Shown one piece after another: positions 1-25,765 of a stretch of 40,350 nt of DNA. The notes beneath the pieces are model-generated. The model ran no database searches. It worked only from the letters and a program-made list of their open reading frames with translations, and had not been told where the DNA came from. The stretch's first letter is position 1. Every line of letters begins with the position of its first letter. The translations under genes were made by a program, and so were the position numbers. Location of the stretch: the sequence record SRR22947725_317, one strand, 5' to 3'.

Positions 1-697
1 CAGTCGTAAGAAAGTTGATCCACCAAGCGGGCCGCGGAATCGCGTTGATAATCGTCTTAGGAGTCAGGGTCGGTGGAATAGTCATTCCGTTTCGCTTGTC
101 ACGGAGCCGGTCACCCGGAACCGGGACATCTACCGTGAGGACTAACGTCTCGAAGCCCGCTGCTTTCGCTCTTTCAATCAGGCCCATTGAGCGCTCACGG
201 TCTTTCCACATGTAGAGCTGGAACCAATTGTGTCCCTCTGGCGCGGCTTGAGCCACTTCCTCGATGGAGCGAGTGCCCATGGTGGAAAGACAAAACGGAA
301 TCCCAGCAGCCATCGCCGCCTGGGCTCCGGCTATTTCGCCTTCGGTATGCATCATTCGAGTAAAGCCGGTTGGGGCGATGCCAAAAGGCAACTTCATCCT
401 GGTTCCCAGAATCTCAGAACTGAGGTCCACTTGTGAAACATCGCGCAGAATTCTGGGCCGCCAAACTATTTGGTTAAACACCTCCCGAGTCCGGTTGATT
501 GTTAGCTCGGCATCGGCGCCACCCTCGGTGTAGTCAAAAGGGGCCTGCGGAGTCCTCCGCTTCGCAATCCGGCGAAGGTCCTCAATGGTGAATGAGTTAT
601 CTAATCTTCGTTTAGTAGGCCTGAATTCGAAGCGCTTGAATTTCATTAGTGGGGCAAGATCTATTGGGTTAGGAAACTTGCGCTTTATTCTCGCCAT
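1..697 (-). CDS. lldD: FMN-dependent alpha-hydroxy-acid (L-lactate) dehydrogenase, runs off the left edge
   Basis: Not in the ORF track because it has no stop in the window. Manual translation from ATG 697: MARIKRKFPNP...[18 protein letters not shown]...[16 protein letters not shown]...[14 protein letters not shown]...LTVDVPVPGDRLRD. Close paralogue of 21515-22759; SD GAGGTGG upstream. Confidence 0.9.
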   Translation of the reverse strand, partial: MARIKRKFPNPIDLAPLMKFKRFEFRPTKRRLDNSFTIEDLRRIAKRRTPQAPFDYTEGGADAELTINRTREVFNQIVWRPRILRDVSQVDLSSEILGTRMKLPFGIAPTGFTRMMHTEGEIAGAQAAMAAGIPFCLSTMGTRSIEEVAQAAPEGHNWFQLYMWKDRERSMGLIERAKAAGFETLVLTVDVPVPGDRLRDKRNGMTIPPTLTPKTIINAIPRPAWWINFLTT

Positions 698-758
698 CTG
701 ATCCACCTCTTCTGTTTCAAAGTTCACATCGACTTGGTTCTCATGCTATGTTGGAGCC

Positions 759-770
759 ATCCTATAGGAT
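759..770. promoter_or_regulatory. Perfect palindrome ATCCTATAGGAT, putative fucose-regulon operator
   Basis: Lies between divergent lldD and enolase starts; one-mismatch copies at 9192-9203 and 15009-15020. Confidence 0.7.
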
Positions 771-783
771 TTTGGAGCGGAAG

Positions 784-1905
784 ATGCCTTCTCAAAGCGC
801 AGTCAATAATATTGAGATTAGGGCCTGCAGAGGTCCGGATACTTCTGATTTGGGAACGGTCTCGGTGGATTTGCCCGGCGGGACGAGACCAGATTTCACA
901 GTGGTAACACTGACCACTGAAGATGGAACCACCGGAACTAGCTTTGGGTTCGGAGCGCTCGACGCGAAGGCTGCCGCGGCGGCGCAGAGCCAAGTAAAGC
1001 CATTTTTTATTGGCAGGGATGTCTTTGACGCCAACAAAAATATGAAGGACTTTGAAATGTTCGATCGGCGGTGGAATCACGTTCCGGTCTACGCCTACGG
1101 CCCCTTCGATAATGCTTGTTGGGATGCGGTAGGAAAAATCTCAAACCAACCGGTCTATAAGCTTCTGGGTGCCGCCAAGTCCGAGCTCCCCCTGTACGTA
1201 AGCTCGATGTTTTTGCCTGGGCCGCAGGATTATGCAAGGCAGGCGCTGGAGGTTAAGGCCAAAGGTTACCGAGGCTATAAATTGCACCCTCCCAACAAGG
1301 GTGTAGACCTAGACATCGAATGTTATCGAGCGGTTCGAGAGGCGGTCGGTCCCGACTTCACCCTGATGGCCGATCCCGTGATTATGTCCAGCTACGAAGA
1401 AGCTCTTCGGGCTGGGCGTGAGCTCGAGCGACTCGGTTACCGATGGTTTGAAGAGCCGCTACTTGACGTGAATTTCAATGGACTGAAAAAACTCGGAGAG
1501 AAATTGGACATACCAATTTGTGGCACTGAGGTTCTTGCTGGATCACACTATTCAACCGCCTGGTGCATTAAAGAGGGCATTGTCGACATTGTCAGGACAG
1601 ATGTCAGTTGGCGCGGCGGGCTGACCGCGGTGATGAAGACGGCTCACCTAGCCGAGGCGTTTGGAGTTCAATGTGAGCTCCACACCGCCATCTATCACGG
1701 ACTTGAGCTAGTTCAACTTCACGCGGCCCTGGCGATCTCTAACTGTGAATTCTTCGAAACGCTCTACCCATGGGATGACTTCGAGTTTGGAACTAAAACC
1801 AAACTCAACGTCATCGATGGGATGGTTCAAGCTCCGCAAGGAGTGGGACTAGGAATTGAGTACGACTGGGACTTCATTGAAGACCACACGATAGCCGTGC
1901 TTTAG
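784..1905 (+). CDS. Mandelate racemase/enolase-superfamily protein, probable acid-sugar dehydratase
   Basis: D-x-x-x-W-D-x-x-G-K capping motif, GYKLHP (KxH), metal ligands in ADP / FEEP / GTE, C-terminal ELH. Start moved to ATG 784 because of the GGAG SD. Confidence 0.85.
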   Translation: MPSQSAVNNIEIRACRGPDTSDLGTVSVDLPGGTRPDFTVVTLTTEDGTTGTSFGFGALDAKAAAAAQSQVKPFFIGRDVFDANKNMKDFEMFDRRWNHVPVYAYGPFDNACWDAVGKISNQPVYKLLGAAKSELPLYVSSMFLPGPQDYARQALEVKAKGYRGYKLHPPNKGVDLDIECYRAVREAVGPDFTLMADPVIMSSYEEALRAGRELERLGYRWFEEPLLDVNFNGLKKLGEKLDIPICGTEVLAGSHYSTAWCIKEGIVDIVRTDVSWRGGLTAVMKTAHLAEAFGVQCELHTAIYHGLELVQLHAALAISNCEFFETLYPWDDFEFGTKTKLNVIDGMVQAPQGVGLGIEYDWDFIEDHTIAVL

Positions 1906-1973
1906 CAAGCAATTGATGCACCAGGGCTTGCCGAAGTTGAAATCTTTACTGGCCACCCGGGTTACTTACAAGC

Positions 1974-2933
1974 CTAGCTAACGATAGGGCGGATCTCCCC
2001 AACCATCTTGCCGCCTCCGAAAATTGGCGCGTTGAGCTCTTGATGCTGGGCCAGCGTTCCCGCTGGAAGGGCCCCGATCCTCTCTAGAGCGCCAATCGCA
2101 ATAACTGTGGTAGCTCTCAGGCTGCCGTCAATGACCTTAATTCCGACGCTTGCACCCTCGGCCGTAGCCATGCCGAACACTCCCTCGGCACCACCCTTTG
2201 CAATACTCCCCACAAAGGACTCCATCACCAAAGTATTCAATTGCCCAACACCTTGAACCAAAACAGGATGGGCTCGCATGGCATCTGCAATACGCCCTTC
2301 GTTGGTTCCGCTCTGGGCTTGAGCCAGAACTCGGAATGACCTGGCGATGCCGACCAAGGTCGTCCCAAAAAGAGCGGCCCCGCAGCCATCTACCGCAACT
2401 AACGATTCCGTGTCCCCAGAAATAACTGCAATGGTTGATCGAATTTGCAGCTGGAGTGGGTGCTCCGGCGACAGATAGCTATCTAGAGGCCAGCCACGAG
2501 CCTTAGAAGCTGCAAGCATTGCCGCATGCTTTCCCGAGCAGTTCATAAATATTGGTTGCCTTTGCACTCCGGCACGAATCAGGCGCTCCCTCGAACCAGA
2601 ATCCTCGGGATAGTCAGCTGGACAGGCAAGGTTTGACTCTTCTATTTCATAACGATGGAGAATAGAGCGGACGACTTCGACGTGCTGCTCACTCCCCACA
2701 TGACTTCCGATAGAAACTGCCAGCTGCTGCTCACTCAGATCTAGCCCGGTATGAAGAACCCCTAGAGCTTGGAGCGGCTTATAGGTTGATCTTGGCAGCA
2801 CCAAATCTGCAGGGGAACCCAAACTCAGGGCAGTCGAACCATCCGGAGCTAAAGCGAATAGCGAGCCAAAATGCCGGCTCTCCACAAATCCAGATCGCTC
2901 GACAACAGCAAGCTCCGCGTAATTGTTAGACAC
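1974..2933 (-). CDS. L-asparaginase II family (class 3, Rhizobium etli-type) amidohydrolase
   Basis: RSTYKP (SxxK), GSH, NCSGKH, DGCG and AKGGAEG motifs; GTG start overlaps the upstream fucosidase stop by 8 nt. Confidence 0.88.
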   Translation of the reverse strand: MSNNYAELAVVERSGFVESRHFGSLFALAPDGSTALSLGSPADLVLPRSTYKPLQALGVLHTGLDLSEQQLAVSIGSHVGSEQHVEVVRSILHRYEIEESNLACPADYPEDSGSRERLIRAGVQRQPIFMNCSGKHAAMLAASKARGWPLDSYLSPEHPLQLQIRSTIAVISGDTESLVAVDGCGAALFGTTLVGIARSFRVLAQAQSGTNEGRIADAMRAHPVLVQGVGQLNTLVMESFVGSIAKGGAEGVFGMATAEGASVGIKVIDGSLRATTVIAIGALERIGALPAGTLAQHQELNAPIFGGGKMVGEIRPIVS

Positions 2934-4290
2934 GCATGAACTCTATGACGTTTGGACCTGGCACTTTTGCCGCTCCCAGCGTCATAAAGACTGACTCACC
3001 ATTTCGACGAAGTGCAACCGAAGAACCATCTGCCAGCAATTTAGCCTCGTCACGGACTAGGCCTAGCGGCAATGTGATCTCCACCTCACCACTGGCTTGG
3101 ACGTGAGCGAAGATGCGGCCATCTTTGCCCGTGAAACGAACCCAGGAAGCGTCTTCCTTGTCACCCTGCGCCTTTAGCTCAGTTACCTTCGAGGTTCCAT
3201 AAATTGCTTGGGAATTTACTGCCATCCAATCGCCCATTCCTTGCAGCACCTTGCGCTGAATTTCAGGAATAGCTCCGCTGGCTGTAGGACCGACATTCAG
3301 CAGCAGGTTGCCACCGCGAGAAACAATGTCAACAAAGTATGCCAGGGCGCTTTCTACGCTGAGCGAGTGCTCTTCGGTTTCATACTGGTTGTAGCCAAAG
3401 CTCATTCCAATTCCACGACAGTTCTCCCAAACCGATGCATCCTCAGCCTCCTTGAGGGCTTGATATTCACTGGTCCTGAAGTCGTGATGAGTATCGCCCC
3501 AGCGATCATTTACGAGGCCATGGGGCACTTTTTCGTAGTAATACTTGAATAGTTTTGCCAGGGTGAAATCAACACTCGCGTCATTCAACTTTGAAAAGTC
3601 GGGCCACTCTATGTCGTTCCACAAGATGTCGGGCTCGTAGCGATTAATCAGGTCGACCACATGTTCGTAGGCATACATGGAATACGAAGCATCATTCGGC
3701 CGCAAATCGGTCACATCCTCAAATGTTTGAATCGGTGGCTGAGTGCCAAGACCCCAATCCAAACCGCCCGAGTAATAAACGGCAAAGCGAATGTCGCTTC
3801 TCCGAGCAGCGTCTGCAATCGCCTGCATAATGTCTAACTTCGGTCCGCGTTGAACAGTGTTTCGAGTCCCAGTTCCCGGAGCATCCCATAAAGTCACGCC
3901 GTCGTGGTGCTTCGATAGGGGAACAATGTATCGCGCTCCCGCATAGTGAAACAGTTTGCACCAAGCATCGGGGTCGAAATCAGGCGTCTTCCAGTTGTCC
4001 AAAAGCTCATCGTAGGGCCTGTCTCCGAAGTGCTCGCGATGATGGAGTTGTGCTCCAGACCCCTCGATGCGAATGCTATTGAAGTACCACTCGGCATATG
4101 GGTTCGTTCTAAAAAACATACTTTCGTCTACAGTTCCCAATTCCCCCACTGGCTCACCGTAGGCCGGCACCGAAAATGGGCCCCAGGACACAAAAATTCC
4201 CAGCTTGGCGTCGGTGTACCAACTTGGCACCTCGCGGGCAAAGTCGTCCCAAAAGCTAGCGCGAGGTAGTCCCTTTTTTAGAAGTGCCAT
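2926..4290 (-). CDS. GH29 alpha-L-fucosidase-like protein (FIHWG reads FVSWG)
   Basis: NPYAEWY, KHHDG, WND nucleophile, NDRW, SEY, LLLNVGP; no signal peptide. Confidence 0.9.
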   Translation of the reverse strand: MALLKKGLPRASFWDDFAREVPSWYTDAKLGIFVSWGPFSVPAYGEPVGELGTVDESMFFRTNPYAEWYFNSIRIEGSGAQLHHREHFGDRPYDELLDNWKTPDFDPDAWCKLFHYAGARYIVPLSKHHDGVTLWDAPGTGTRNTVQRGPKLDIMQAIADAARRSDIRFAVYYSGGLDWGLGTQPPIQTFEDVTDLRPNDASYSMYAYEHVVDLINRYEPDILWNDIEWPDFSKLNDASVDFTLAKLFKYYYEKVPHGLVNDRWGDTHHDFRTSEYQALKEAEDASVWENCRGIGMSFGYNQYETEEHSLSVESALAYFVDIVSRGGNLLLNVGPTASGAIPEIQRKVLQGMGDWMAVNSQAIYGTSKVTELKAQGDKEDASWVRFTGKDGRIFAHVQASGEVEITLPLGLVRDEAKLLADGSSVALRRNGESVFMTLGAAKVPGPNVIEFMRV

Positions 4291-4341
4291 GATCTTGCCT
4301 CTCCTCTCGTTGTTTCGTTGTTGTTTTGAAAAAGCTAATTT

Positions 4342-5712
4342 CTAAAAGTGCGTCAAAGTGACGTCTTCTGGGTTGCCGCCAAGATCTAGAACCAAAACTG
4401 GGACTAGCCCGCCCAAACTGCCGTCTGAGGTGTCGATAATTAGCTCGCCCTCAGGGTCTGGCAAATCAGTGTTGTTGATTGGCGCCCGTCTCTTAAATTC
4501 ATAGCTTTGCCCGGTAGCCAGATTCTTTACCGATTTTGCCCTTCGAATCTTCACTCCGCGCACAACCACTGACTCACCCGGGGTTGCTAACTGGTGGAGA
4601 TAGACCAGGTCTCCCCGCCTAGTGCTGGGCCCATAGAACTGCCACGCCTCGAGGCCGGGCTCGACACCAATTACGCTGTCACCGCAAGCTTGCATCCACT
4701 CGCCCAGGGCTCGCATTATTTCTTGCTCCTCCTCGACTAAGGCCCCATCCCCCTTAGGCCCTATGTTCAAAAGGAGGTTTCCACCTCGTGACACCACCTC
4801 AATCAAGGTTCGAAGAATTTCATGGGTGCTTTTGAAACCGTGGTCATCTGGAACATAGCCCCACGAATAATTCATAGTCATGCAGCACTCCCAGGGCTCC
4901 GGCAGTGGCTGAGACGGGATCCATTGCTCTGGGGTCCGATAATCTCCCTGACTGAATAGTCGATCGTTGATCAGAGTTTTTGGGCTCAATTTACGAATGT
5001 GAGCCTCAATGTCTTTCGTATTCCACTGCTCTTCGCTGCGCTCCCAACCCCCATCGAACCAAAGCAAATCGACTGGACCATACTCTGTCAGGATCTCCTC
5101 AAGTTGATCTTTGAGATACTGCCTGTAGCGCGCCCACTGCTCCGGCGTTCCCATAGGAGAGTCGTAGCCAAATTTGTAGGGACGATACTCGTCCTTCCAG
5201 GGAAGGTAGTCTTCGTGACCCCAATCCGAGAGGGAGTAGTAGACCCCAACCTTTATGCCATGTGCGCGAAAAGCGTCGACATAACTGCGAAGGATATCTC
5301 CACCGCGCTTACCGAAAGGTGAGCTCGTTATGTTTCGATTTCCATGCTTGGATGGCCAGCTCGCCCAGCCATTGTGGTGCTTGGCGGTGAAAACCGCGTA
5401 GGTTATGCGAGCCTCCTTTGCAAGCGTGGCAATGTGATCTGGGTCCCACATAACGGGGTCGAAGGTTTCGTGGCTCGAGTGGTACTGCTGGGCGGGAACT
5501 CCCTTGCCCGGTAGGGCAAACACACCGCCAACCAGAGGCCAGCTCAGTTCTAATCCCTGCTGACTCGCATGATCCCAGTGAATAAAGAGGCCCAGCCCAG
5601 CTCCACTGAACCATTCTTTCACTCGCTCTGAATGCCCTGGCTCAAGCGGGTAAGCGTCTTGCATCCTCGAATCAAATAGTTCGCGGTCGGTTATGGCGCT
5701 GTTTTCGGACAT
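4342..5712 (-). CDS. GH29 alpha-L-fucosidase, divergent subfamily
   Basis: GLFIHW, AKHHNG, LWFDG nucleophile, INDR, TPEQ, WECCMTM..SWGY, LLLNIGP. Confidence 0.9.
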   Translation of the reverse strand: MSENSAITDRELFDSRMQDAYPLEPGHSERVKEWFSGAGLGLFIHWDHASQQGLELSWPLVGGVFALPGKGVPAQQYHSSHETFDPVMWDPDHIATLAKEARITYAVFTAKHHNGWASWPSKHGNRNITSSPFGKRGGDILRSYVDAFRAHGIKVGVYYSLSDWGHEDYLPWKDEYRPYKFGYDSPMGTPEQWARYRQYLKDQLEEILTEYGPVDLLWFDGGWERSEEQWNTKDIEAHIRKLSPKTLINDRLFSQGDYRTPEQWIPSQPLPEPWECCMTMNYSWGYVPDDHGFKSTHEILRTLIEVVSRGGNLLLNIGPKGDGALVEEEQEIMRALGEWMQACGDSVIGVEPGLEAWQFYGPSTRRGDLVYLHQLATPGESVVVRGVKIRRAKSVKNLATGQSYEFKRRAPINNTDLPDPEGELIIDTSDGSLGGLVPVLVLDLGGNPEDVTLTHF

Positions 5713-5745
5713 GATGCTCCTGTCTTTAGAACTCTTGAGGGCTCG

Positions 5746-6591
5746 CTACTTGCTAATACCACCGAGAGCAATTCCTTTTGTGACGTATCGGCTGAAGAAG
5801 ATGTAGAGGATGAGCACTGGCAAACTCGCCAGCGTCAGACCGGCGAACATGGGTCCGTAATCGGCAGAGAAATCACCAATGAAAGACAGCAGTCCGACTG
5901 AGATCGGCTGTGATTCTCGCCTATTGAGCAGCACGATAGATATCTGATAATCCGTCCAGGCAAATACCAGGTTCAAAATGCTTACTGCGACGATTTGACC
6001 CTTTGAAAGCGGCAGCACCAACTTGAATAAAGTTCGAACCGGCCCCAGCCCATCCAGAAGTCCTGCCTCAAGAACCTCCCGAGGAAAGTCGATGAAGAAC
6101 CTGTTCATCAGCAGAAACGCGGTTGGGATGTTGAGTGCGCCGTAAACAAATCCGGTGGCCACTGGATTGTTGAGTAAGCCGATGGCATTAAACGCCCTGA
6201 AGTAGGGAATCACTAGCATGATGATCGGGACCACCGTGCCGGCAATAACTATGAGCAGAATTCTTTGGTTCCACGCTCGCGTTAGGAATGAGGTGAAGTA
6301 GGCGCTCGGAACCGAGACGCTTAGGCTGACAAAGAGGGCCGTCGTAGCAATGATGATTGAATTGAGAAAGAACACTCCGATAGTTGCATCACTGGTGGGA
6401 CCTGCATTCCAAGCTGTCACATAGTTGACCCACTGCGGCACAAAATCAAAAAGGCCAAGGGGGTTTGAGAAGATCGCCGTGTTGCTCTTCAATCCAAACA
6501 GCGAAACGAAAATAAAGGGGAAGATCACCAGGACCGTCCAGAAAATTACTGCAACATACGCCACCAAGCGGCCGATTCGGTATTTCAACAT
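5746..6591 (-). CDS. Carbohydrate ABC transporter permease (MalG-like)
   Basis: Multiple TM segments, EAGLLDG (EAA loop); ATG overlaps the upstream TGA. Confidence 0.92.
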   Translation of the reverse strand: MLKYRIGRLVAYVAVIFWTVLVIFPFIFVSLFGLKSNTAIFSNPLGLFDFVPQWVNYVTAWNAGPTSDATIGVFFLNSIIIATTALFVSLSVSVPSAYFTSFLTRAWNQRILLIVIAGTVVPIIMLVIPYFRAFNAIGLLNNPVATGFVYGALNIPTAFLLMNRFFIDFPREVLEAGLLDGLGPVRTLFKLVLPLSKGQIVAVSILNLVFAWTDYQISIVLLNRRESQPISVGLLSFIGDFSADYGPMFAGLTLASLPVLILYIFFSRYVTKGIALGGISK

Positions 6592-7550
6592 CAATCTATC
6601 TGCCTTGATCTACTGAGACGAATGCCTAGCCATCCGATAACCACCAAGAAGATGCCGGCGATGACCGCTGCGGCAGAGGCTGGGCCGAAGCGGCCATACC
6701 TAAATGCCTCGACGTAGGTGAAGATGGGCAAGATTTCAGATGACCTTCCAGGCCCTCCCTGCGTCATGGCGAACACCAGGTTGAACCCGTTGAAATTCCA
6801 AATCAACTGGAGCGTCAGGATGGTAAACATGACGGGAGCAATGAGTGGGATGATGATTTGGAAAAGCTGCTGGCTCTGGGAGGCACCATCGATTTTTGCC
6901 GCCTCACGATAGCTAACATCGACACCTTCTACCGCCCCCAATAGGACGAGAAAAGCGAATCCGACTCCAACCCAGATTCCCACAAAAATCACGGGGAACA
7001 TCACGGTTGCCGACTGCGCTAACCATTGATTGTCGCTCGGCAACCCCAGCCGACCAAGGATTGCGTTTACGACACCAATTTCCGGCTGGAAGCCTAAGCT
7101 CCAGAAAATTGCTACCGCGGTGGGCGGGGCGACCCCAGGGAAAAACCACACGACTCTGAAAAACTTGCTTCCGCGAAGATTGGAGCTCACTGCAACCGCC
7201 AGCAACAGAGCGATCGCCACTATGAAAAATGAAGCTACAAAGGAGTAGAGGAGGGTGATTCGGATGCTTTCGGCGAGCCTACCCTCGGCAAAGAGTGTGT
7301 CGTAGTTCTCAGTTCCGACCCATACCGGAGTTCCAATTCCCGGCCACTCATTAAAGCTCAGCCAAATGGAGTTCATTGCGGGAAGGGCCAAGAAAGTGAA
7401 GAGAATACCGAAGACCGGAATGAGGCTAAAGATGGCCCACTTCTGATTCGTGGCTGCCAGTCCTATCTTGGACTTCTTGTTACTAACTCCAGAAGAGAGA
7501 GATGCCGCTTTCGAACCAACAGATTTCTTGTTGGTTGTAGTCACGGTCAT
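6591..7550 (-). CDS. Carbohydrate ABC transporter permease (MalF-like)
   Basis: TM segments, EAAKIDGAS motif, MTQGGP. Confidence 0.92.
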   Translation of the reverse strand: MTVTTTNKKSVGSKAASLSSGVSNKKSKIGLAATNQKWAIFSLIPVFGILFTFLALPAMNSIWLSFNEWPGIGTPVWVGTENYDTLFAEGRLAESIRITLLYSFVASFFIVAIALLLAVAVSSNLRGSKFFRVVWFFPGVAPPTAVAIFWSLGFQPEIGVVNAILGRLGLPSDNQWLAQSATVMFPVIFVGIWVGVGFAFLVLLGAVEGVDVSYREAAKIDGASQSQQLFQIIIPLIAPVMFTILTLQLIWNFNGFNLVFAMTQGGPGRSSEILPIFTYVEAFRYGRFGPASAAAVIAGIFLVVIGWLGIRLSRSRQID

Positions 7551-7596
7551 CTCCCTCTTCTTTGAGTTTGCTTTATCTAATCAGAACTCGAACGCA

Positions 7597-9006
7597 CTAG
7601 CCGTTCGCTCGAGTTTTTTCCAGTTCAGACTGCTGAAGCTCGCCAATTTCCTGCGGCGTGATTCGGTCCTCTTGAAGCTGCTGGATTAGCGGGTTCAAGA
7701 AGATCTGACCAAAGGCTCCAGGAACCTCAGATGTCCAGCCCGAGTTTGACCCGTTGACAGATACGTAGTCAACGATGTCCTTCACCAGTTGTGGGAAGCT
7801 CTCGGAGTCGTCAACGGAGACCGTTGTCACAGCTGGTAGGAAGCCACCAACTTCAACGGCTCCCAGACGCTGGCCCTCGTCGCTGATGTAGTACTGCAGC
7901 AACTTCTTGCCCCAGTCTGGGTTCTGAGCCCGAACTGGAACGCCGTAGGCGTTTCCGTAGTAAGGGGTCAAACGTGAAGGAGCTCCGGCATCGGACACCG
8001 GTGGCAGAACCGCAAAGCCGGGATCAAATGTCATTTCTCCACTCTCCTTGGCTGAGGCGAAGGTGCCGCCGGGTAGCCAGGAGCCGCTTAGCAGCATGCA
8101 GGATCCACCTGTGGTGAACAACGCTTCAGCAGCTGGTCCATCCTGACCCAAGTAACCTTTCTGGTACAGACCTTCCGAAGCGTAGCTTCCAAGGGTTTCA
8201 AGAGCAGCAATCACTCCTGGAGCCGAGTAGTCAGCAGTCACGTCAACGTTCGACTTCCAACTGCTGAGGTAGTTGTTGAAGTCATCTGCCGATACTGCAG
8301 TTGGAAGAGCTGCGTCGAACATCCACGAAGCTTGGTAGTTTGTGTTTCCACCAATTGCAAGGCCAGCGTAACCAGCAGCCGAGCACTTCTTGCCCGCTTC
8401 GATAAGAGATGCTGGACTCTCAAACACCTTGTTCTCAGGGATTGTGACGCCGGAAGCTGCGAGGGCGTCAGGGTTTGTCCAGAGAATGTTGTAGTAGGCA
8501 ACTGTGTTAGGAGCTGCGTAGTAGTTTCCATCAGCCTGGAGCAACGCTGCTGCAGGTGGACCTAGACGCTCTGGGAAGTTGTCTTCTGCGAAAATGTCGT
8601 TCAGCGGAACAAGCTCACTGGCGCGAACCATCTGGGTGTAAACATTTGAGTTGAGTGGAATCAGCGCAATGTCTGGCGCTTCGTTTGATGTTAGAACCTG
8701 AAGGTTTGGTCCACCCTTAGCCTCGTTGGTGATTCCCTGCAGGTCAACAGTAACGTTTGGGTACTTTGCAGAAAAAGCATCTGCGACTGCACGCCATGCA
8801 CGAGCATCAGGTCCGTCTTCTGGAACTTCATACTGCACAACGATGGTTACTGGATCTTCAGTAAGCGGAGCTGACGTTTCACCTGAAGATGAGCCATCAG
8901 TTGTAGAACCACCAGTGGTCTCGGCGGCACATCCAGCTAGAACTAGCGCAGCAATCGGAAGAGATGCACCGACCGCCCACCACCTCGAACTTGTTTTAAG
9001 TCGCAT
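7597..9006 (-). CDS. Sugar ABC transporter substrate-binding lipoprotein
   Basis: Lipobox LVLAG-C with Ser/Thr linker; first gene of the permease operon. Start set at ATG 9006 behind AAGGAG. Confidence 0.9.
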   Translation of the reverse strand: MRLKTSSRWWAVGASLPIAALVLAGCAAETTGGSTTDGSSSGETSAPLTEDPVTIVVQYEVPEDGPDARAWRAVADAFSAKYPNVTVDLQGITNEAKGGPNLQVLTSNEAPDIALIPLNSNVYTQMVRASELVPLNDIFAEDNFPERLGPPAAALLQADGNYYAAPNTVAYYNILWTNPDALAASGVTIPENKVFESPASLIEAGKKCSAAGYAGLAIGGNTNYQASWMFDAALPTAVSADDFNNYLSSWKSNVDVTADYSAPGVIAALETLGSYASEGLYQKGYLGQDGPAAEALFTTGGSCMLLSGSWLPGGTFASAKESGEMTFDPGFAVLPPVSDAGAPSRLTPYYGNAYGVPVRAQNPDWGKKLLQYYISDEGQRLGAVEVGGFLPAVTTVSVDDSESFPQLVKDIVDYVSVNGSNSGWTSEVPGAFGQIFLNPLIQQLQEDRITPQEIGELQQSELEKTRANG

Positions 9007-9191
9007 TATATATATCTCCTTACGGATCATCGTGGTCCTCCTCGTGATTTGCGTCCCAAGAAGAGGTCTTCACATCGAAGCATATATCCGATGTGATTTC
9101 TACATTATCATCAACTTTTAGAAAAAAAAGGACGTCCACCAGAACCTATCCGAATTCGTTATCTGCTTGGAAGAATAGGACTAGTCTGTAA

Positions 9192-9203
9192 ACCCTATAG
9201 GAT
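9192..9203. promoter_or_regulatory. ACCCTATAGGAT, putative fucose-regulon operator
   Basis: One mismatch to the 759-770 palindrome; in the divergent SBP/fucosidase intergenic region. Confidence 0.65.
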
Positions 9204-9242
9204 ATCGTCACCAAAAACGCAGGAACTTCAGGAGGAGAAAAA

Positions 9243-10556
9243 ATGGATTGGTCGCAGTTCAATCGTCAGGTGCCGCAGTGGTACGTTGACGCCAAATTTG
9301 GAATCTTTATCCACTGGGGCGCCTACTCTGTCCCTGCTTGGGCACCTCCGACTGGCGAGCTCGGTGCAGTTGAAGAAGAGGTCTGGTTCAAAAACAATCC
9401 CTATGCGGAGTGGTACTACAACACCGTGAGGATCGAAGGGAGCCCAACCTGGCAGCACCATCAGGATGTTTACGGCGGGGCCCCATATGACGACTTCCTA
9501 GACATGTGGAGGGCAGAGAAATTTAATCCGAACGAATGGTTGGATCTTTTTTCCCGCGCCGGAGCGAAATACGTTGTCCCAACCACAAAACACCACGATG
9601 GAATAACACTTTGGGACGCGCCAGGCACCGGAACGCGAAACACGGTGCACCGTGGTCCGAAGCGAGACCTGATTGATGACTTGGCGAAAGCAACCAGGGC
9701 CAAAGGTTTGCACTTTGGCGTTTACTACTCTGGTGGACTTGACTGGAGTGTCTCCAATCTGCCTGCACTGACCACCCACCACGAGGTACACAATGTTCGG
9801 CCCCAGGACGCCGCTTACTCTATGTATGCGTACGAGCACTGCATAGATCTGATTCATAAGTACAAGCCCGAGGTGCTTTGGAATGACATTGAGTGGCCAG
9901 ATTTCTCAAAGCATGGTGGCCCAGAAGTGGACTTCTCCCTTGCCGCACTATTCAAGAACTACTACGAGGCCGTTCCCACCGGCGTGGTAGATGATCGTTG
10001 GGGCGATACTCACCGAGACTTCATAACGAGTGAATACCAAATGAACATCGACTCAGAGGGCCAGGGGCTCTTCGAAAACTGTCGTGGAATCGGATTCAGT
10101 TTTGGCTATAACCAGGTTGAAACCGAAGAGCACTACATGAGTGTCGGCCAACTGGTCTCCCACCTTTGCGACATCGTCTCGAGAGGTGGCAACTTCCTGC
10201 TAAATGTTGGTCCCACAGCAAGCGGAGAGATCCCTGCAATTCAGCGAGCAATCCTTGAGGGCACCGCAGATTGGATGGCCGTCAATGGGGACGCCATCCA
10301 TGGCACTCGTGCAGTTCGAGAGTTGAGTGCGAGTGATTCCCCCTGGGTTCGCTTCACCGGTAAAGATGATGTCATCTTCGCGCTGGTGAAGGGAACTGGT
10401 GAAATCAGCTTTGAACTGCCAAGCCACTTGGTTCGCGACGAGGCTCGTCAACTCGGTGGCAGCAGCGTGGAGGTTCGGCGCGAAGGCTCCAGGGTGAGAG
10501 TCAGCGTGGCTGGCAATGAGGAGACTCCCACGGTAATTGAGTTCAGTCGCTCCTAG
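9243..10556 (+). CDS. GH29 alpha-L-fucosidase
   Basis: KFGIFIHWG, NPYAEWY, KHHDG, WND, DRW, SEY; strong SD AGGAGG. Confidence 0.93.
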   Translation: MDWSQFNRQVPQWYVDAKFGIFIHWGAYSVPAWAPPTGELGAVEEEVWFKNNPYAEWYYNTVRIEGSPTWQHHQDVYGGAPYDDFLDMWRAEKFNPNEWLDLFSRAGAKYVVPTTKHHDGITLWDAPGTGTRNTVHRGPKRDLIDDLAKATRAKGLHFGVYYSGGLDWSVSNLPALTTHHEVHNVRPQDAAYSMYAYEHCIDLIHKYKPEVLWNDIEWPDFSKHGGPEVDFSLAALFKNYYEAVPTGVVDDRWGDTHRDFITSEYQMNIDSEGQGLFENCRGIGFSFGYNQVETEEHYMSVGQLVSHLCDIVSRGGNFLLNVGPTASGEIPAIQRAILEGTADWMAVNGDAIHGTRAVRELSASDSPWVRFTGKDDVIFALVKGTGEISFELPSHLVRDEARQLGGSSVEVRREGSRVRVSVAGNEETPTVIEFSRS

Positions 10557-10564
10557 GAGGGCAC

Positions 10565-10987
10565 ATGGCTTCAAACGCAGAGCTCAGAGCAATAGCGACG
10601 GAGTTTTTCGAGCAGATCTGGAATCAGGGAGATGAGTCGGCGATCGAGCGTTTCATAGCGGAAGATGCCGGTGGTAACGATCCCCAGTTCGGTGTCGGTC
10701 GAGAGAGCTTTCGCGCTCAGTGGAAAAACTGGCGGCAGGCCTTTCCGGATATACACTTCGAAATCAAGGAGCTGGTTGCGGACAGTGAGGCCGAGACAGT
10801 CGTGACTCGCTGGGTGCTCACCGGAACACACGTGGGAGAGTTCTGGGGTGCCGAGGCCAGTGGAAATCGCGTGGAGGTTGATGGAGTTTCGATTGATCGA
10901 ATTGCGAACGGCATGGTCGTCTCAGGTTTCGACGCTTGGGACTCAATAGTTTTACGTCGCCAAATTGGATTACTACCCCCCGAATAG
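10565..10987 (+). CDS. SnoaL-like/NTF2-fold ester cyclase family protein
   Basis: AFPD.HF.I, RW.LTGTH.GEF.G..ASG..V.V.G, RQIG pattern; SD AGGAGG. Confidence 0.85.
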   Translation: MASNAELRAIATEFFEQIWNQGDESAIERFIAEDAGGNDPQFGVGRESFRAQWKNWRQAFPDIHFEIKELVADSEAETVVTRWVLTGTHVGEFWGAEASGNRVEVDGVSIDRIANGMVVSGFDAWDSIVLRRQIGLLPPE

Positions 10988-10994
10988 AGGAAGC

Positions 10995-12332
10995 ATGGAC
11001 TGGAAGAGTTTTGAACGCCCGACCCCCGAATGGTACCTGGATGCAAAATTCGGCATATTCATCCACTGGGGAGCGTATTCAGTGCCGGCATGGGCTGAAC
11101 CAATTGGTGAACTTGGCACAATTGAGGGCGACACTTGGTTCGCCCACAATCCATATGCAGAGTGGTACTTCAACACGATACGCATTGAGGGCAGTCCGGC
11201 CTGGCAGCATCACCAGGAGGTTTTCGATGGCGCTCCCTACGATGATTTTCTCGACTCCTGGAGAGCAGAAAAGTTTGATGCCGATGTTTGGGCCGATCTC
11301 TTTGAGAGGGTGGGCGCAAAGTATGTGATTCCAGTGACCAAGCATCACGATGGGATCGCTCTTTGGGATGCTCCCGGAACTGGCACCAGAAACACCGTTC
11401 ACCGTGGGCCAAAGCGGGACCTCATCGGCGAGATTGCCAGGGCAGTAAGAAAGAGGAATCTAAAGTTCGGAACGTACTACTCGGGTGGGCTTGACTGGAG
11501 TGTGACCAACCTTCCACCCCACAGTGAATTTGCCTCGGGTGGCGGTGATCGACCAAACGACGCTGCCTACTCGATGTACGCCTACGAGCACTGCATGGAC
11601 CTGATTGATCGATATAAGCCCGACATTCTTTGGGACGACATCAACTGGCCAGATTTCTCAAAATCCGCAGGCCCAGAGGTGAGCCACACCCTTGCCTCCC
11701 TGTTTTCTAATTACTATCGAGCGGTTCCCCAGGGCTTAGTCAACGATCGTTGGGGCGTTCCCCATCATGACTTCATTACAAGCGAGTATCAAATGAATGT
11801 CGAGCACGAAAGCAGCGGGTTGTTCGAAAACAACCGCGGCCTTGGATACAGTTTCGGCTATAACCAGGTGGAAGTTGAAGAACACCACATGAGCGTCGAG
11901 CAGGTGGTGAGTCACCTCTCAGATGTTGTTTCGCGAGATGGTAATTTCCTACTGAACGTCGGGCCACTGGCCAGTGGTGAGCTTCCACAGATTCAGTTGC
12001 AAATCCTGGAAGGCGTCGCCAAATGGATGTCGGTGAACGCAGATGCCATCCACGGGACTCGCGCTTTGAAACAGCTTTCTCCAGTCGGTTCCAAGAATCG
12101 CGGAGAGTTGCCATGGGTCCGATTTACCGGAAAGGATGAGCGCATCTTCGCCATACTGAAGGGCGCTACCTCAGTTGAGTTTGCGCTCCCCCAAGGCACT
12201 GTGCGCGATGACAGCGCAAGGGTTCTCGGTTCTGGTCAAGCGGTGCTTAGCAGAAAAGGTGACTTGGTATCTATTGAGCTGCCAAAGGAAGCCGAAAACC
12301 TGCCTATTGTCGTTGAGTTTCAGCGTCTTTAG
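10995..12332 (+). CDS. GH29 alpha-L-fucosidase, close paralogue of 9243-10556
   Basis: Same motifs. Start moved to ATG 10995 (MDWKSF matches the paralogue's MDWSQF; SD GAGG). Confidence 0.93.
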   Translation: MDWKSFERPTPEWYLDAKFGIFIHWGAYSVPAWAEPIGELGTIEGDTWFAHNPYAEWYFNTIRIEGSPAWQHHQEVFDGAPYDDFLDSWRAEKFDADVWADLFERVGAKYVIPVTKHHDGIALWDAPGTGTRNTVHRGPKRDLIGEIARAVRKRNLKFGTYYSGGLDWSVTNLPPHSEFASGGGDRPNDAAYSMYAYEHCMDLIDRYKPDILWDDINWPDFSKSAGPEVSHTLASLFSNYYRAVPQGLVNDRWGVPHHDFITSEYQMNVEHESSGLFENNRGLGYSFGYNQVEVEEHHMSVEQVVSHLSDVVSRDGNFLLNVGPLASGELPQIQLQILEGVAKWMSVNADAIHGTRALKQLSPVGSKNRGELPWVRFTGKDERIFAILKGATSVEFALPQGTVRDDSARVLGSGQAVLSRKGDLVSIELPKEAENLPIVVEFQRL

Positions 12333-12344
12333 GCCTGTCGGGCA

Positions 12345-13343
12345 CTAGTCGATGAAGGCAGCTACCGATTCTGCTCTCACTATTTTTTGATCGCGCAAAT
12401 CCACCCACATAGCTCTTGGTATCTCCGCACTGATCAAATCAGCATTGCGCTCAACTTGCTCCTTGCTTCTTGCTCCCAGGCAAATATTGGACACTGAGCT
12501 GTGCCCCAGCGGAAACCGCGCGGCGGCAGCGGGCAAGGAAACTCCGTGTGACTCGCAGATTTCGGCAATCTCATTGACCCGAGCAATCAACTCTTGAGGG
12601 GCCGGTGCGTAGTTGTAGGTCGCATCTGAAGAGGGTCGATCCTTAGAAAGCAGTCCTGAGTTAAATACGCCCGCCGCAACGATGCTCACGTTGTGCTCAT
12701 GAGCTAAGGGCATCAAATTGTCGAGTGAGTCTTGCTCGATCAGAGTGTATCGACCGGCCAACATAATGACATCGAGATCGGTGCGCTTGACAAACTCGGC
12801 AAGCATTTCGGATTGATTCATTCCTGAGCCAAAGCTTTTGATGACACCCTCGTCACGAAGCTTTGACAGGGTGGGGAATGCACCTTCCAAAGCTTGTTCA
12901 AAATGATCGTCAGGATCGTGGACGTACACAATATCGAGGTAGTCGGTGTCGAGTCTTCGCAGCGAATCCTCGATAGATCTCTTTACTCCATCACCTGAAT
13001 AGTCGTAGACGCGAACAAAGTCTTTTGGAACCATGAAACCATCGGCCAGGTCATTTTGCCCGGGAAAATCATTGGTTGGAGCCAGCACTCGCCCTACCTT
13101 CGAAGACAGAAAGTATTCAGTCCTTGGGTGCTTTGAAAGAGCCTTTCCCACTCTCCTCTCAGCCAAGCCAAGTCCGTAGTGAGGAGCTGTGTCAAAGTAA
13201 CGAATTCCCCTGTCCCAGGCGGCATCGATGGCAAGGAGCGCATCCTCTTCATCAACTTCGCGGAACAGATTGCCTATCGGTGCCGACCCAAATGACAAAA
13301 TAGGCGCCTCTATGCCACCCCTTCCAATAGCTTTGGTTTGCAT
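12345..13343 (-). CDS. Aldo/keto reductase, probable L-fucose (D-threo-aldose) 1-dehydrogenase
   Basis: FDTAPHYGLGLAE, SKVGR, VHDPD, LAGRYTL; TAATG coupling to the fuconate dehydratase. Confidence 0.82.
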   Translation of the reverse strand: MQTKAIGRGGIEAPILSFGSAPIGNLFREVDEEDALLAIDAAWDRGIRYFDTAPHYGLGLAERRVGKALSKHPRTEYFLSSKVGRVLAPTNDFPGQNDLADGFMVPKDFVRVYDYSGDGVKRSIEDSLRRLDTDYLDIVYVHDPDDHFEQALEGAFPTLSKLRDEGVIKSFGSGMNQSEMLAEFVKRTDLDVIMLAGRYTLIEQDSLDNLMPLAHEHNVSIVAAGVFNSGLLSKDRPSSDATYNYAPAPQELIARVNEIAEICESHGVSLPAAAARFPLGHSSVSNICLGARSKEQVERNADLISAEIPRAMWVDLRDQKIVRAESVAAFID

Positions 13344-14641
13344 TAGCTTCTCCATTCGGTGCCGTTAGGAAATTCAAAATCAAGTCTGGAGCGCAGCAGC
13401 ATCTCTTGGCTCGAGCCAGGTTTGCTCGGGGTCTGGTAGCGCCCGTTTCGCATGACGACGGGCGAGGCGAAGTGCTCGTGAAGATGATCGACGTACTCAA
13501 TCATTCGTCCCTCCATCGTTCCCGATAGAGCCACGTAGTCAAACATAGAAAGATGCTGAACAGCCTCGCAGAGCCCGACTCCCCCAGCGTGAGGGCAAAC
13601 TGGAAGACCCATCTTGCGGGCCATCAGCAGAATTGCGATGTTCTCATTTACCCCGGCAACGCGAGCAGCGTCGATCTGAACTACCTGGACTCCTCCGAGC
13701 TGCATGAGCTGTTTGAAAGTCACTCGGCTAGCGGCATGCTCGCCGGTGGCAACCCGTATTGGTGCCACTGCTTTTGCGATGGTGGCGTGTCCCACCACAT
13801 CATCCGGGCTAGTTGGCTCCTCAATCCAAGCTGGGTCGAATTCCCGCAATTGATTTACCCATTCGATAGCCTGAGGCACGTCCCAGCGTTGATTTGCGTC
13901 GATCGCGATGGGGTAATTCGGACCCATTACTTCGCGCGCGATTCTGAAGCGCCGTTTGTCATCTTCCAGGTCCGCACCAACTTTGAGCTTGATCTGCCCG
14001 AAGCCGTCTGCCAGTGCCTGCTTACAAAGTCTGGTCAGCTTGGCATCGTCGTAACCGAGCCAACCGGGGCTTGTCGTGTATCCGGGATATCCCTCTGCAA
14101 CCAAGTGCTCAATGCGACTTTCACGACCGCTGAGTTGAGAGCTAAAAAGCTCAACTGCCTCCTCCCGCGTAATCACATCAGAGATGTAGCGATAGTCCAC
14201 AAGATCTGCCAGCTGCTCTGGAGTCATTCGAGCAAGAAGCAGCCAGAGTGGCACTCCGGCGCGCTTGGCCTTTAAGTCCCAAAGAGCGTTTACGACAGCG
14301 CCAATTGCCATATGCATAACGCCTTTTTCGGGCCCTAGCCAGCGAAATTGAGAGTCGTGAACCAGGCGCTTCCAGGTGGTTCCCATATCGTAAAGAACAC
14401 TCTCGACATTCTCACCGACGAGCATCGACTCCAATGCCTGTATTGCGGCGACTTGGATATCATTTCCTCGACCTATGGTGAACACAAAGCCATGGCCTGT
14501 AAGGCCATCTCTGGCATCTGTCACGATCTCAAGATAGGCAGCTGAGTAATCTGGATCGGTGTTCATCGCATCCGAACCGTCAAGGCTCTTTGACGTTGGA
14601 AACCTGATGTCTTGTGTGCGAAATTCTAGGATCGTGCTCAT
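13343..14641 (-). CDS. fucD: L-fuconate dehydratase (enolase superfamily)
   Basis: DIRFPTS..LDGSDAMN.DPDYSAAY, RWLGPEKGV, KLKVG, DANQ, EEPTSPDD, ATGEH, CPHAGGVGLCE, EYVDHLHEHF. Confidence 0.92.
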   Translation of the reverse strand: MSTILEFRTQDIRFPTSKSLDGSDAMNTDPDYSAAYLEIVTDARDGLTGHGFVFTIGRGNDIQVAAIQALESMLVGENVESVLYDMGTTWKRLVHDSQFRWLGPEKGVMHMAIGAVVNALWDLKAKRAGVPLWLLLARMTPEQLADLVDYRYISDVITREEAVELFSSQLSGRESRIEHLVAEGYPGYTTSPGWLGYDDAKLTRLCKQALADGFGQIKLKVGADLEDDKRRFRIAREVMGPNYPIAIDANQRWDVPQAIEWVNQLREFDPAWIEEPTSPDDVVGHATIAKAVAPIRVATGEHAASRVTFKQLMQLGGVQVVQIDAARVAGVNENIAILLMARKMGLPVCPHAGGVGLCEAVQHLSMFDYVALSGTMEGRMIEYVDHLHEHFASPVVMRNGRYQTPSKPGSSQEMLLRSRLDFEFPNGTEWRS

Positions 14642-14661
14642 ATTTTGACCTTCTTAGCGAG

Positions 14662-14985
14662 CTAGTCGGTGTGAAAAACTTCTTGGATCTGTTGCCACCA
14701 CTCACCCTCAGCACGCCCGGGAAGCCCATACTGCAGGGGGTCGGTCAGTTTCCACCACTCCTGGGTGTTTTGATCAGCAGCGATTGCCGCCATGTCGGAG
14801 CTGTAATCTGAGCCGACATACTCAAAATAGGAAAACAGCAGATTTTCAAAGCGATAAATTGAGTAATTCCTGATGTTGCTTTCACTGATGCGAGCAAGAA
14901 CTGAGGGCCAAACTTCTCTATGAAGCCTTTCGTACTCAGCGATGTTCTCGTCCGCTATACCGATTACCGAGGCCACTCGCTTCAT
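14662..14985 (-). CDS. RhaM-family mutarotase, L-fucose mutarotase by context
   Basis: EY.R.H..VWP, NYSIY, LFSYFEY, WW..T pattern; first gene of the fucD operon. Confidence 0.85.
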   Translation of the reverse strand: MKRVASVIGIADENIAEYERLHREVWPSVLARISESNIRNYSIYRFENLLFSYFEYVGSDYSSDMAAIAADQNTQEWWKLTDPLQYGLPGRAEGEWWQQIQEVFHTD

Positions 14986-15008
14986 TGCAACTCCATCCCA
15001 ATTTGATA

Positions 15009-15020
15009 ATCCTATAGGGT
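15009..15020. promoter_or_regulatory. ATCCTATAGGGT, putative fucose-regulon operator
   Basis: One mismatch to the 759-770 palindrome; 23 nt upstream of the mutarotase ATG. Confidence 0.65.
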
Positions 15021-15320
15021 TTTACTCTACTCAATTTCTCGACGCACGCTGCCGTGGCGGGCTCAAACTTCGCGGTGGCCGAAGGGGATTGCCACCCCGG
15101 TTGTAACTTTCTCTTGGGTTTAGCGATCAGACTTTGGCTTAGATCCGGACCTAGGTTTTCGCATGCCGCTCTAATTAGATAATCAGACAGGAATCGAGAA
15201 GAGTCGCTTCACGGTCGCAAGGGCATTCAAGAGAATGGAGGAGTGGTCCTCGATCTTGCGCTTGGTCAGGCTAGGTTCCCTAAAACTGATGCTTGCCAAA
15301 AAGTTCCTTTTGACAAGTCC

Positions 15321-21006: not shown

Positions 21007-21117
21007 CTAGTTCAAGGTGCTGAGAACTAATTGTGGGTATGCCCTGATAGCTGCTGCCTCGGTTGCACGAACCAGCTCCATCGCGAGATTTCTATCAAAA
21101 TGAAGTTCCACGCTCAT
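21007..21117 (-). pseudogene. glpX: 5' fragment of class II fructose-1,6-bisphosphatase
   Basis: Manual translation MSVELHFDRNLAMELVRATEAAAIRAYP|QLVLSTLN*. DRNLAMELVRATEAAA is the actinobacterial GlpX N-terminus; similarity stops near 21034. Confidence 0.8.
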
Positions 21118-21189
21118 GGGCTCAAACCCCTTTTTCCTCTGGACGTGGACTGCCGAATACGCTTTTGGGTTTTCTGGCAGGCCAGCGAT

Positions 21190-21537
21190 CTAGGCTAAGA
21201 AAAATACATTCTCAAGGGTGAGAAATCCGTCGTCTGGATTACGGCCGTTGAGACCTTCGAAGAAGTGTGCCATCTCACGCTGCCATCTCACATTTACCTC
21301 GAGGCCTTTCATTGCCTCGATCGACGCCTGTGCGTCGTTGGACTCAAAATAGCCAAATAGGGTGCCATCGGACCGATCCAGGAACAAGGAGTAGTTTCGC
21401 CAGCCTGCCTGGCTCAAAGCAGCAGTCATTTCCGGCCACACACTCTCGTGCACTTGAACGTACTCTTCTAAGGTCGCCAAATTCAATTGAAGACGAAACC
21501 CCACTCGCTCCAAGCTAGGCGCCCCTTCTCTGCTCAT
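21190..21537 (-). CDS. rhaM: L-rhamnose mutarotase
   Basis: EEY...[27 protein letters not shown]. Confidence 0.88.
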
Positions 21538-22759: not shown

Positions 22760-22764
22760 ATTTA

Positions 22765-25452: not shown

Positions 25453-25508
25453 TGGTGACCTTTCAACTTTGAAATTTGTTACACGGAAAATGTGTCCATC
25501 AGCCTACA

Positions 25509-25710: not shown

Positions 25711-25765
25711 TGTATGGCGGTCAGTCAAACAAAGCTGGCCAAATTTTCGTAATGGAGGTAGTGAT

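Follow-up and report, generated by a model that had tools for sequence, protein, structure and literature searches.

The 40,350-nucleotide stretch of DNA analysed here (sequence record SRR22947725_317, hereafter the window) carries on its minus strand an operon in which a sugar ATP-binding cassette (ABC) importer and two GH29 alpha-L-fucosidases are encoded together with a class-3 L-asparaginase. The original prediction, made from the sequence alone, had read the operon as substrate-binding protein (SBP), permease, permease, GH29, GH29 and Asparaginase_II, and had placed the GTG start of the asparaginase gene within an 8-nt overlap with the stop of the preceding fucosidase gene, GH29b. Both statements are borne out. 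Six tightly packed genes occupy window positions 1974–9030 (Table 1), and the overlap can be read directly in the sequence, where GTGTCTAA holds both the GH29b TAA (2928–2926) and the asparaginase GTG (at 2933). The two permease genes overlap by 4 nt, and the remaining intergenic gaps of the operon measure 33–51 nt. The asparaginase is the sole non-fucosidase hydrolase of the operon. Two further GH29 genes, GH29c and GH29d, which lie divergently beyond the SBP gene, had been omitted from the original prediction.

The start of the asparaginase gene is well fixed, because GTG 2933 is the only ATG, GTG or TTG codon before the conserved Arg13. The longest open reading frame of the SBP begins at 9030, and position 9006, which had been given before, is its second in-frame ATG. 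The latter is probably the true start, since a 99%-identical database protein has 469 aa and a 2-nt indel is found at 9007, just upstream, in contigs from two (X4 and X10) of four metagenome runs aligned to the window. Signal-peptide analysis revealed a LAGC lipobox in the SBP and no signal peptide in the asparaginase or in GH29a–GH29d (0/5), indicating that hydrolysis is cytoplasmic. A promoter and terminator scan of the window gave scores no higher than those of shuffled controls.

Table 1. Features of the fucoside island in the window, with protein identities to the syntenic island of genome G709
Feature	Position	Strand	Basis	Identity in G709
Class-3 (Ser-Lys/Zn) L-asparaginase, 319 aa, cytoplasmic (predicted)	1974..2933	-	PF06089, E 7.4e-96, 321 bits	61%
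Start/stop overlap, 8 nt, GTGTCTAA (GH29b TAA and asparaginase GTG)	2926..2933	-
GH29b alpha-L-fucosidase, cytoplasmic (predicted)	2926..4290	-	PF01120, E 2.3e-82	77%
GH29a alpha-L-fucosidase, cytoplasmic (predicted)	4342..5712	-	PF01120 (Alpha_L_fucos), E 3e-78	78%
ABC permease 2 (MalG/UgpE-like)	5746..6594	-	BPD_transp_1	83%
ABC permease 1 (MalF/UgpA-like)	6591..7550	-	BPD_transp_1; NCBIfam matches all below cut-off	86% (aligned part), 82% (whole alignment)
SBP, lipoprotein of a CUT1-type sugar ABC importer	7597..9006	-	SBP_bac_1, E 8.5e-19, and SBP_bac_8	77%; divergent operon begins here
Divergent control region SBP/GH29c, two operator-like blocks (~9081–9100 and ~9190–9207)	9031..9242		Alignment with G709
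GH29c alpha-L-fucosidase, divergent operon	9243..10556	+	PF01120, E 3e-88	78%
SnoaL-like (NTF2-fold) protein, between GH29c and GH29d	10565..10987	+	PF07366, E 9e-30	79%, position kept
GH29d alpha-L-fucosidase	10965..12332	+	PF01120, E 2e-83	73%
Aldo-keto reductase (AKR), candidate L-fucose dehydrogenase	12345..13355	-	PF00248; role inferred	75%
Enolase-superfamily acid-sugar dehydratase (MR_MLE2), candidate L-fuconate dehydratase	13343..14641	-	MR_MLE_N and MR_MLE_C; NCBIfam matches all below cut-off	82%
Second dehydratase of the enolase superfamily; its gene converges on that of the asparaginase	748..1905	+	MR_MLE
Right-hand boundary of the strain-variable island	15367		Collinearity with G001 begins at ~15367

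The asparaginase matches PF06089 over profile positions 2–321 of 322, with 321.3 bits against a cut-off of 25, and aligns with the Rhizobium etli enzymes ReAIV and ReAV (E ~1e-29). In a Foldseek search, its AlphaFold model (pLDDT 96.5, from an alignment of 59 sequences) was closest to 8ori and 7os3, which are ReAIV/ReAV structures (TM score 0.88, E 6e-25), followed by glutaminases and a TEM beta-lactamase at TM scores of only 0.35–0.40. The consulted part of the ReAV literature lists Arg47, Ser48, Lys51, Ser80 and Lys263 as essential, Cys135, Lys138 and Cys189 as the zinc site, and His139, Tyr156 and Asp187 besides (PMC12292245). The corresponding catalytic residues of the window protein are R48, S49, K52, S77 and K246, each of which is kept in 135–141 of 141 family representatives and in 17/17 members of the clade described below, while the zinc site is formed by C132, K135 and C184, with H136, Y153 and D182 as neighbours. 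Glu18 and Arg48, whose equivalents hold the alpha-amino and alpha-carboxylate groups in ReAV, are both present. ReAV Cys249 is replaced by Asn233, in a column that is variable across the family, and the protein has no insertions or deletions of its own. As judged from its sequence, the enzyme is thus a canonical, intact member of class 3, a group defined by hydrolysis of L-Asn to L-Asp and ammonia. It shares with ReAIV/ReAV the Pfam family, the fold, the Ser-Lys tandems, the Arg47 equivalent and the zinc ligands, and differs from them in being only 24–30% identical and ~20–50 residues shorter, and in belonging to a separate actinobacterial clade within a fucosidase/ABC operon.

The earlier description of class-3 asparaginases as a Ser-Lys/Zn family studied on free L-Asn agrees with the sections consulted of two reports (PMC12292245, PMC12951835). 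In ReAV, according to the latter, again in part, the zinc holds the substrate by its alpha-amino and alpha-carboxy groups, and L-Asn is bound with no more than millimolar affinity (PMC12951835). Since the zinc site and the Ser-Lys apparatus are intact, the window enzyme should still bind an asparagine-type amino acid, which is presumably its substrate. No match to PF01112, the N-terminal nucleophile (Ntn) glycosylasparaginase family, was found in the protein, whose fold is of the ReAV type; any glycosylasparaginase activity would therefore be non-homologous to that of the Ntn enzymes. About 30 positions are specific to the clade, including T50 within the S-x-x-K motif and G247 beside the catalytic Lys.

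A word-indexed search of 5.8 billion proteins with the asparaginase recovered a close clade of 17 clusters at 61–99% identity, after which identity drops to 55% or less. One member, P0016 (61%), is found at 100% identity in G709, a genome of the same family (Microbacteriaceae) and another genus (1.1 Mb, 78% complete, GC content 0.49). The G709 contig keeps the order SBP, permease, permease, GH29a, GH29b and asparaginase, together with the divergent GH29c, SnoaL, GH29d, AKR and MR_MLE genes, at 61–86% protein identity. The GH29b/asparaginase junction of G709 reads GTGCATGA, which is again an 8-nt overlap, with another stop codon. Synonymous sites are saturated between the two islands, the synonymous divergence (dS) being not estimable in 11 of 12 gene pairs. 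The asparaginase gene evolves faster than any other in the island, with a nonsynonymous divergence (dN) of 0.36 as against 0.09–0.23 for the rest. The comparison shows that it has been kept under selection at the operon end across saturating divergence. Downstream of it lies an HTH_3/HipA_C module in G709 and the 748..1905 dehydratase gene in the window, the orthologue of which (88%) lies elsewhere on the G709 contig. Because the 3' neighbour differs, it is the operon, rather than the flank, that the asparaginase gene appears to accompany. The islands do not differ in GC content from their surroundings (0.53 in the window, 0.49 in G709), which suggests long residence. The HTH_3 and HipA_C genes (L214, 16104–17470), a toxin–antitoxin-like pair, come immediately after the asparaginase gene, where the G709 island has its edge.

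Linkage in the other clusters of the clade was assessed by a fingerprint, namely two clusters having exactly equal longest contigs and the same source, which is an inference and not a sequence check. By this measure, six clusters beyond P0016 are linked. The P0016 pairing with GH29b cluster P0276 (longest contig 49309) is the one verified by sequence, in G709. The further pairs are P0010 with GH29b P0271 (14072, JGI), P0004 with GH29b P0392 (5486, JGI), P0003 with GH29b P0397 (4388, Logan), P0015 with GH29b P0427 (15647, Logan), P0017 with both GH29b P0279 and SBP P0441 (23897, Logan), and P0417, the cluster of P0011, with SBP P0435 (13808, Logan). The close orthologue clusters are similar in number for the three proteins: 17 for the asparaginase, 10 for GH29b (at least 65% identity, up to 89%) and 16 for the SBP (at least 71%, up to 99%). 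In a quick IQ-TREE maximum-likelihood tree of 55 rows, with SH-aLRT support only, the window protein and P0002–P0016 (16 rows) are monophyletic (SH-aLRT 99, stem 0.51). Four subgroups can be told apart in this clade, all of which are represented among the linked clusters. The clade stands apart from a Microbacteriaceae housekeeping clade (SH-aLRT 95) that holds the dnaK-linked copies described below. Both checks proposed with the original prediction, a neighbourhood analysis for GH29/ABC linkage and a phylogeny against a housekeeping copy, thus came out positive for the relevant orthologue group: the linked asparaginase forms its own clade, and this clade, at least as its gene neighbourhoods show, travels with fucosidase genes.

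The picture is different for the more distant asparaginases. Pattern scans with the asparaginase, which require exact 8-residue words and missed the closer, 61–84% clade, covered the best 80 of 272 genome relatives and the best 80 of 129 metagenome relatives, at 38–49% identity. None of these 160 loci has a GH29, SBP or permease gene like those of the window within up to 10 kb, and three have weak AKR matches. We had first read this as a lack of conserved linkage, a reading that was dropped once the protein search revealed the 61–99% clade; the 160 loci are a different, housekeeping orthologue group. Annotation of 51 open reading frames adjoining 22 of 23 chosen loci identified amino-acid and housekeeping genes, namely class III and IV aminotransferases, alanine dehydrogenase, GCV_T, BKACE, OsmC and HTH_3. 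In R. etli, the ansA gene is located with genes for an Asn permease and an aspartase. In the genus of the window, 11/37 genomes carry a PF06089 copy, which is just 34–39% identical to the window protein. At all seven loci examined (L188–L194), this copy lies between dnaJ-grpE-dnaK, from which it diverges, and an ATG22-like major facilitator superfamily (MFS) transporter gene, upstream of which it sits; no GH29 match was found at these seven loci. The housekeeping copies of Leifsonia, Labedella and others share family, length class and catalytic residues with the window protein, yet they are only 34–49% identical to it by tblastn and genome search (up to 55% by BLASTP) and fall in a different clade.

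Across a sample of the order, PF06089 occurs in 232/401 genomes, mostly as a single copy, and a GH29b-like gene in 67/401; a search with the SBP, with four candidates scored per genome, gave matches at E ≤ 1e-50 in 2/401. Coordinates compared by eye for 150 of the 256 PF06089 matches revealed no adjacency to a GH29b-like gene, the closest pairs among the matches listed being 38 and 42 kb apart (G334 and G259). We also fetched the 16 best GH29b-like loci of other Actinomycetales. In 13 of them an AKR and/or a dehydratase is present, often with ABC permeases, and the GH29c–AKR–MR_MLE core common to these 13 is 43–67% identical to that of the window. These fucose loci differ from the window in having one or two GH29 genes in place of four and a transporter that is only 24–48% identical; the locus of G436 adds FucU, RhaM and an SBP homologue.

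The remaining genes of the island point to the use of fucose. Besides the fucosidases, its candidate fucose-catabolism genes are the AKR and the two MR_MLE genes only. Beside the G709 island lie genes for a GntR regulator, a short-chain dehydrogenase/reductase (SDR), an Amidohydro_2 protein, an FAH-family hydrolase and a RhaM-like mutarotase. The Amidohydro_2 protein has L-fucono-1,5-lactonase as its best match (141 bits; cut-off 400), and the FAH-family hydrolase reaches 310 bits (cut-off 500). Together with the island, these genes would complete an oxidative deoxy-sugar pathway, all NCBIfam scores being below cut-off. A role of the asparaginase as the missing fuconolactonase was considered and rejected, as G709 already has the lactonase-like Amidohydro_2 gene. 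On another contig, G709 has an operon for a ROK regulator, SBP, permease, GH3, ROK kinase, NagB and NagA-like protein (contig 13; L216, 8473–16877), the nagA/nagB/ROK/GH3 genes of which could serve to use released N-acetylglucosamine (GlcNAc). A NagA-like match was found in G709 and not in its congener G499, in G001 or in G009; in G005 it is fragment-level only (E 2e-4).

In the control region between the two operons, the two blocks listed in Table 1 are identical to G709 over 17–18 bases, as against ~70% identity in the adjacent coding DNA. Both contain an ATATCC/GGATAT core, oppositely oriented, and resemble operator sites for a regulator; a search for inverted repeats within the region found none. 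The true start of GH29d is probably an ATG near 10995, because the G709 orthologue aligns from residue 9.

The window holds a strain-variable fucoside island that belongs to an aquatic Microbacteriaceae bacterium with a small genome. A relative, G001, is 99% identical to window positions 21034–40350 and collinear from ~15367, and has other genes in place of 1–15300. The island is absent from this 99%-identical relative and belongs to the flexible genome. The G001 assembly is 55% complete, and dnaK itself was not found there. Identity between G001 and the window falls stepwise toward the island, from 99% to 95% and 81%, and G001 also has ~2.2 kb (C1, 37004–39215) without a counterpart in the window, at 21031–21034. 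A GH29b-like gene is found in 0/62 species genomes of the window's genus at E ≤ 1e-20. In the genus of G709, one of six genomes has genes like P0016; PF06089 and GH29 each occur in one of five, in the same genome, and both are missing from the other four. All four GH29 copies of G709 are located on the island contig. Class-1 asparaginases and Ntn-type class-2 enzymes (PF01112) were each found in 0/5 related genomes, and those genomes of the G709 genus that lack the island have class 3 in 0/4, class 1 in 0/3 and class 2 in 0/1.

Near-identical copies of GH29b and the asparaginase gene occur in 19 runs from nine studies of marine, aquatic and sediment metagenomes. In the four runs (from four studies) that were aligned to the window, contigs bridge the 2926–2933 junction in 4/4. 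Summed depth is 4–36 over the island as against 18–1105 over the flank from 15310 on; the depth steps at 15310 in 4/4, and loose contig ends occur at 15367 in 3/4. As the depth is a sum over all contigs at least 80% alike, it gives merely a hint that a minority of cells carries the island.

Among the closest known systems is the alf-2 cluster of Lactobacillus casei. The original prediction had named AlfC and a glycosylasparaginase as the enzymes by which this species degrades Fuc-alpha1,6-GlcNAc-Asn, and the relevant part of the published account agrees: the cluster encodes the GH29 fucosidase AlfC and the glycosylasparaginase AsnA2, which act on this compound. It is imported, AlfC defucosylates it first and the glycosylasparaginase then splits the product (PMC6960285). 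Like alf-2 (AlfH, AlfC, AsnA2, AsdA, SugK), the window operon encodes a transporter, cytoplasmic GH29 enzymes and an Asn side-chain amide hydrolase together. The components differ, however. The amidase of alf-2 is an autoproteolytic glycosylasparaginase, whereas that of the window is a Ser-Lys/Zn class-3 enzyme; the transporter is an MFS permease in the former and an ABC system in the latter; and the window fucosidases are not AlfC-like. Homologues of AsdA, PepV and SugK, and an AlfH-type MFS permease, are absent from the Pfam annotations of the window and of the G709 island. The predicted fate of fucose in the island, an oxidative pathway, is likewise unlike that in alf-2.

We tentatively favour, with confidence somewhat short of even, the reading that the asparaginase is a glyco-asparagine amidase. 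As annotated, the lipoprotein SBP and the two permeases are predicted to import small fucosylated compounds, from which the four cytoplasmic GH29 enzymes release L-fucose, to be oxidized via the AKR and the enolase-type dehydratase. According to the model, the asparaginase would cleave the side-chain amide of the Asn-linked sugar remnant, for instance GlcNAc-Asn from defucosylated Fuc-GlcNAc-Asn, yielding aspartate and a glycosylamine or ammonia, and would thereby be the non-homologous counterpart of the Ntn-type glycosylasparaginase of alf-2. We infer that it shares its substrate stream with the fucosidases. The more specific proposal, that this class-3 clade became the glycosylasparaginase of aquatic Actinobacteria, splitting core-fucosylated GlcNAc-Asn that is imported by the CUT1 ABC system and defucosylated by GH29 enzymes, is possible and somewhat doubtful. 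Consistent with the model, alf-2 is the sole known pathway joining a GH29 enzyme to an Asn-amide hydrolase in the literature searched. The bond to be cleaved is identical in Asn and GlcNAc-Asn, both of which have free alpha groups, and the related genomes searched are without an Ntn-type enzyme.

Several observations weigh against an action on glyco-asparagine. In the island, as annotated with Pfam in the window and G709, there is no GH18, GH85 or GH20 enzyme, no peptidase, no aspartate decarboxylase, no sugar kinase and no N-glycan or GlcNAc gene. Neither fucosidase of the operon is AlfC-like in a sequence search of the PDB: GH29a best matches 6gn6 (E 1e-69) and AlfC only at E 2e-21, and GH29b is nearest to the broad-specificity Thermotoga fucosidase 1hl8 (E 2e-107), with AlfC not among its matches at E ≤ 1e-10. 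The importer belongs to the ordinary CUT1 type of sugar transporters; its SBP matches chitin-oligosaccharide-, xylo- and maltose-binding SBPs of the PDB only weakly (E 1e-8), and the nearest homologues of the transporter in cultured genomes (35–38%) belong to fucose loci without an asparaginase. None of the 16 related GH29 loci of other Actinomycetales has one either. The linked copies may all descend from one ancestral island, so that the linkage may have a single origin. Within the enzyme, clade-specific indels are lacking, barring two residues near the C-terminus. The sole departure at columns that are at least 90% conserved among the 141 representatives, Pro192 (ReAV numbering) to Ala, was rejected as a functional signature, as it is found in only 5/17 clade members and the window and not in G709.

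The first alternative is a plain L-asparaginase acting on free L-Asn, kept for nitrogen release during growth on nitrogen-free deoxy-sugars, or, in a variant, using Asn that other enzymes liberate from peptides taken up by the cell, so that the link to fucosides would be regulatory and not substrate-based. We regard it as rather unlikely. The active site of the window enzyme is indistinguishable from that of ReAIV/ReAV, which, in the portion of the source at hand, were characterized on free L-Asn (PMC12292245), and no clade-specific change falls at a known catalytic position; this speaks for the alternative and likewise against an action on glyco-asparagine. Moreover, the island otherwise reads as a full set of genes for obtaining and oxidizing fucose, in which an amidase is unneeded, and horizontal transfer of asparaginase genes is frequent, as stated in the consulted text of a survey (PMC9500103). 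However, a rhamnoside locus of the same logic in the window is without such an enzyme, the Pfam annotations of the two islands include no Asn or amino-acid transporter, and the start/stop coupling to the fucosidase gene was preserved through saturating divergence. In addition, the island-free genomes of the G709 genus have no asparaginase of the classes searched, and free-Asn deamidation is therefore not a general need there.

A recruitment of the enzyme to some other amide or ester of fucosylated substances, such as an amino-acid-linked glycoside, a beta-aspartyl compound or, as in beta-lactamase-fold esterases, an O-acetyl group, is improbable. It would fit the long stem of the clade, the roughly twofold amino-acid divergence relative to the operon neighbours, the ~30 clade-specific positions with T50 and G247 among them, and a fold that is common to glutaminases and serine beta-lactamases, as noted in the ReAV report, seen in part (PMC12292245). 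The zinc ligands, Arg48 and Glu18 are all kept, however, which favours an amino-acid substrate in the light of the available sections of PMC12951835, and a lactonase role is already taken in G709 by the Amidohydro_2 protein. Least probable, and in our view quite unlikely, is a passenger gene that was captured once at the operon end of an ancestral island and has no part in fucoside use. The linked copies do form one clade and could trace to a single capture, the island is patchy and strain-variable, and no gene of it evolves faster. Against this, the saturation of synonymous sites has left intact the reading frame, the 8-nt overlap and all residues of catalysis and zinc binding, and the predicted fold is confident. 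Furthermore, small genomes shed unused genes fast, and those concerned here measure only 1.1–1.7 Mb.

Each component, be it the enzyme family, the GH29 genes or the fucose pathway, is already known. As the original prediction had supposed, no description of a separate class-3 clade that is stably built into a fucoside operon was found in the literature searched, where the L. casei paper alone, as far as its consulted part goes, treats an asparaginase and a fucosidase together (PMC6960285). A word search of the accessible text of a large survey of bacterial asparaginases found no mention of operons (PMC9500103). Class-3 asparaginases have been studied almost solely as free-Asn enzymes and drug candidates, and their physiology outside Rhizobium is largely unclear. 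With the linked clade, N4-glycosyl-asparagine becomes a candidate second substrate class that can be put to the test. If the glyco-asparagine amidase model holds, the clade would represent a case of non-homologous replacement of the Ntn-type glycosylasparaginase, and streamlined aquatic Actinobacteria would draw both carbon (fucose) and nitrogen (aspartate, ammonia) from glycoprotein debris by means of a strain-variable island, which would be a new route of glycoprotein-nitrogen recycling in surface waters. Even if the enzyme merely deamidates free Asn, a conserved link between nitrogen release and the use of deoxy-sugars would be an undescribed arrangement.

Beyond the close orthologues, the databases hold a larger set of GH29 relatives at 60–62% identity and SBP relatives at 47–58% (ENA, JGI and Logan assemblies), one of which is labelled as a freshwater metagenome. 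Some of these distant GH29 and SBP relatives share longest-contig values (29635 and 22969) that no listed asparaginase cluster has, and they may represent a related kind of fucoside locus that lacks the asparaginase gene.

The rhamnoside locus of the window (21190–35260) follows a plan like that of the fucoside island and has no amidase. It comprises a GH78 alpha-L-rhamnosidase, an FMN-dependent dehydrogenase, RhaM, a second SBP with two permeases, an FGGY kinase, an aldolase–SDR fusion, a RhaA-like isomerase and a LacI regulator. Between the two loci, at 16749–18983, lie a UbiA prenyltransferase gene and a flavin amine-oxidase-type gene, a carotenoid-like pair, and positions 35368–38977 encode a P450 and a ferredoxin-reductase-type protein, with an adjoining AraC regulator.

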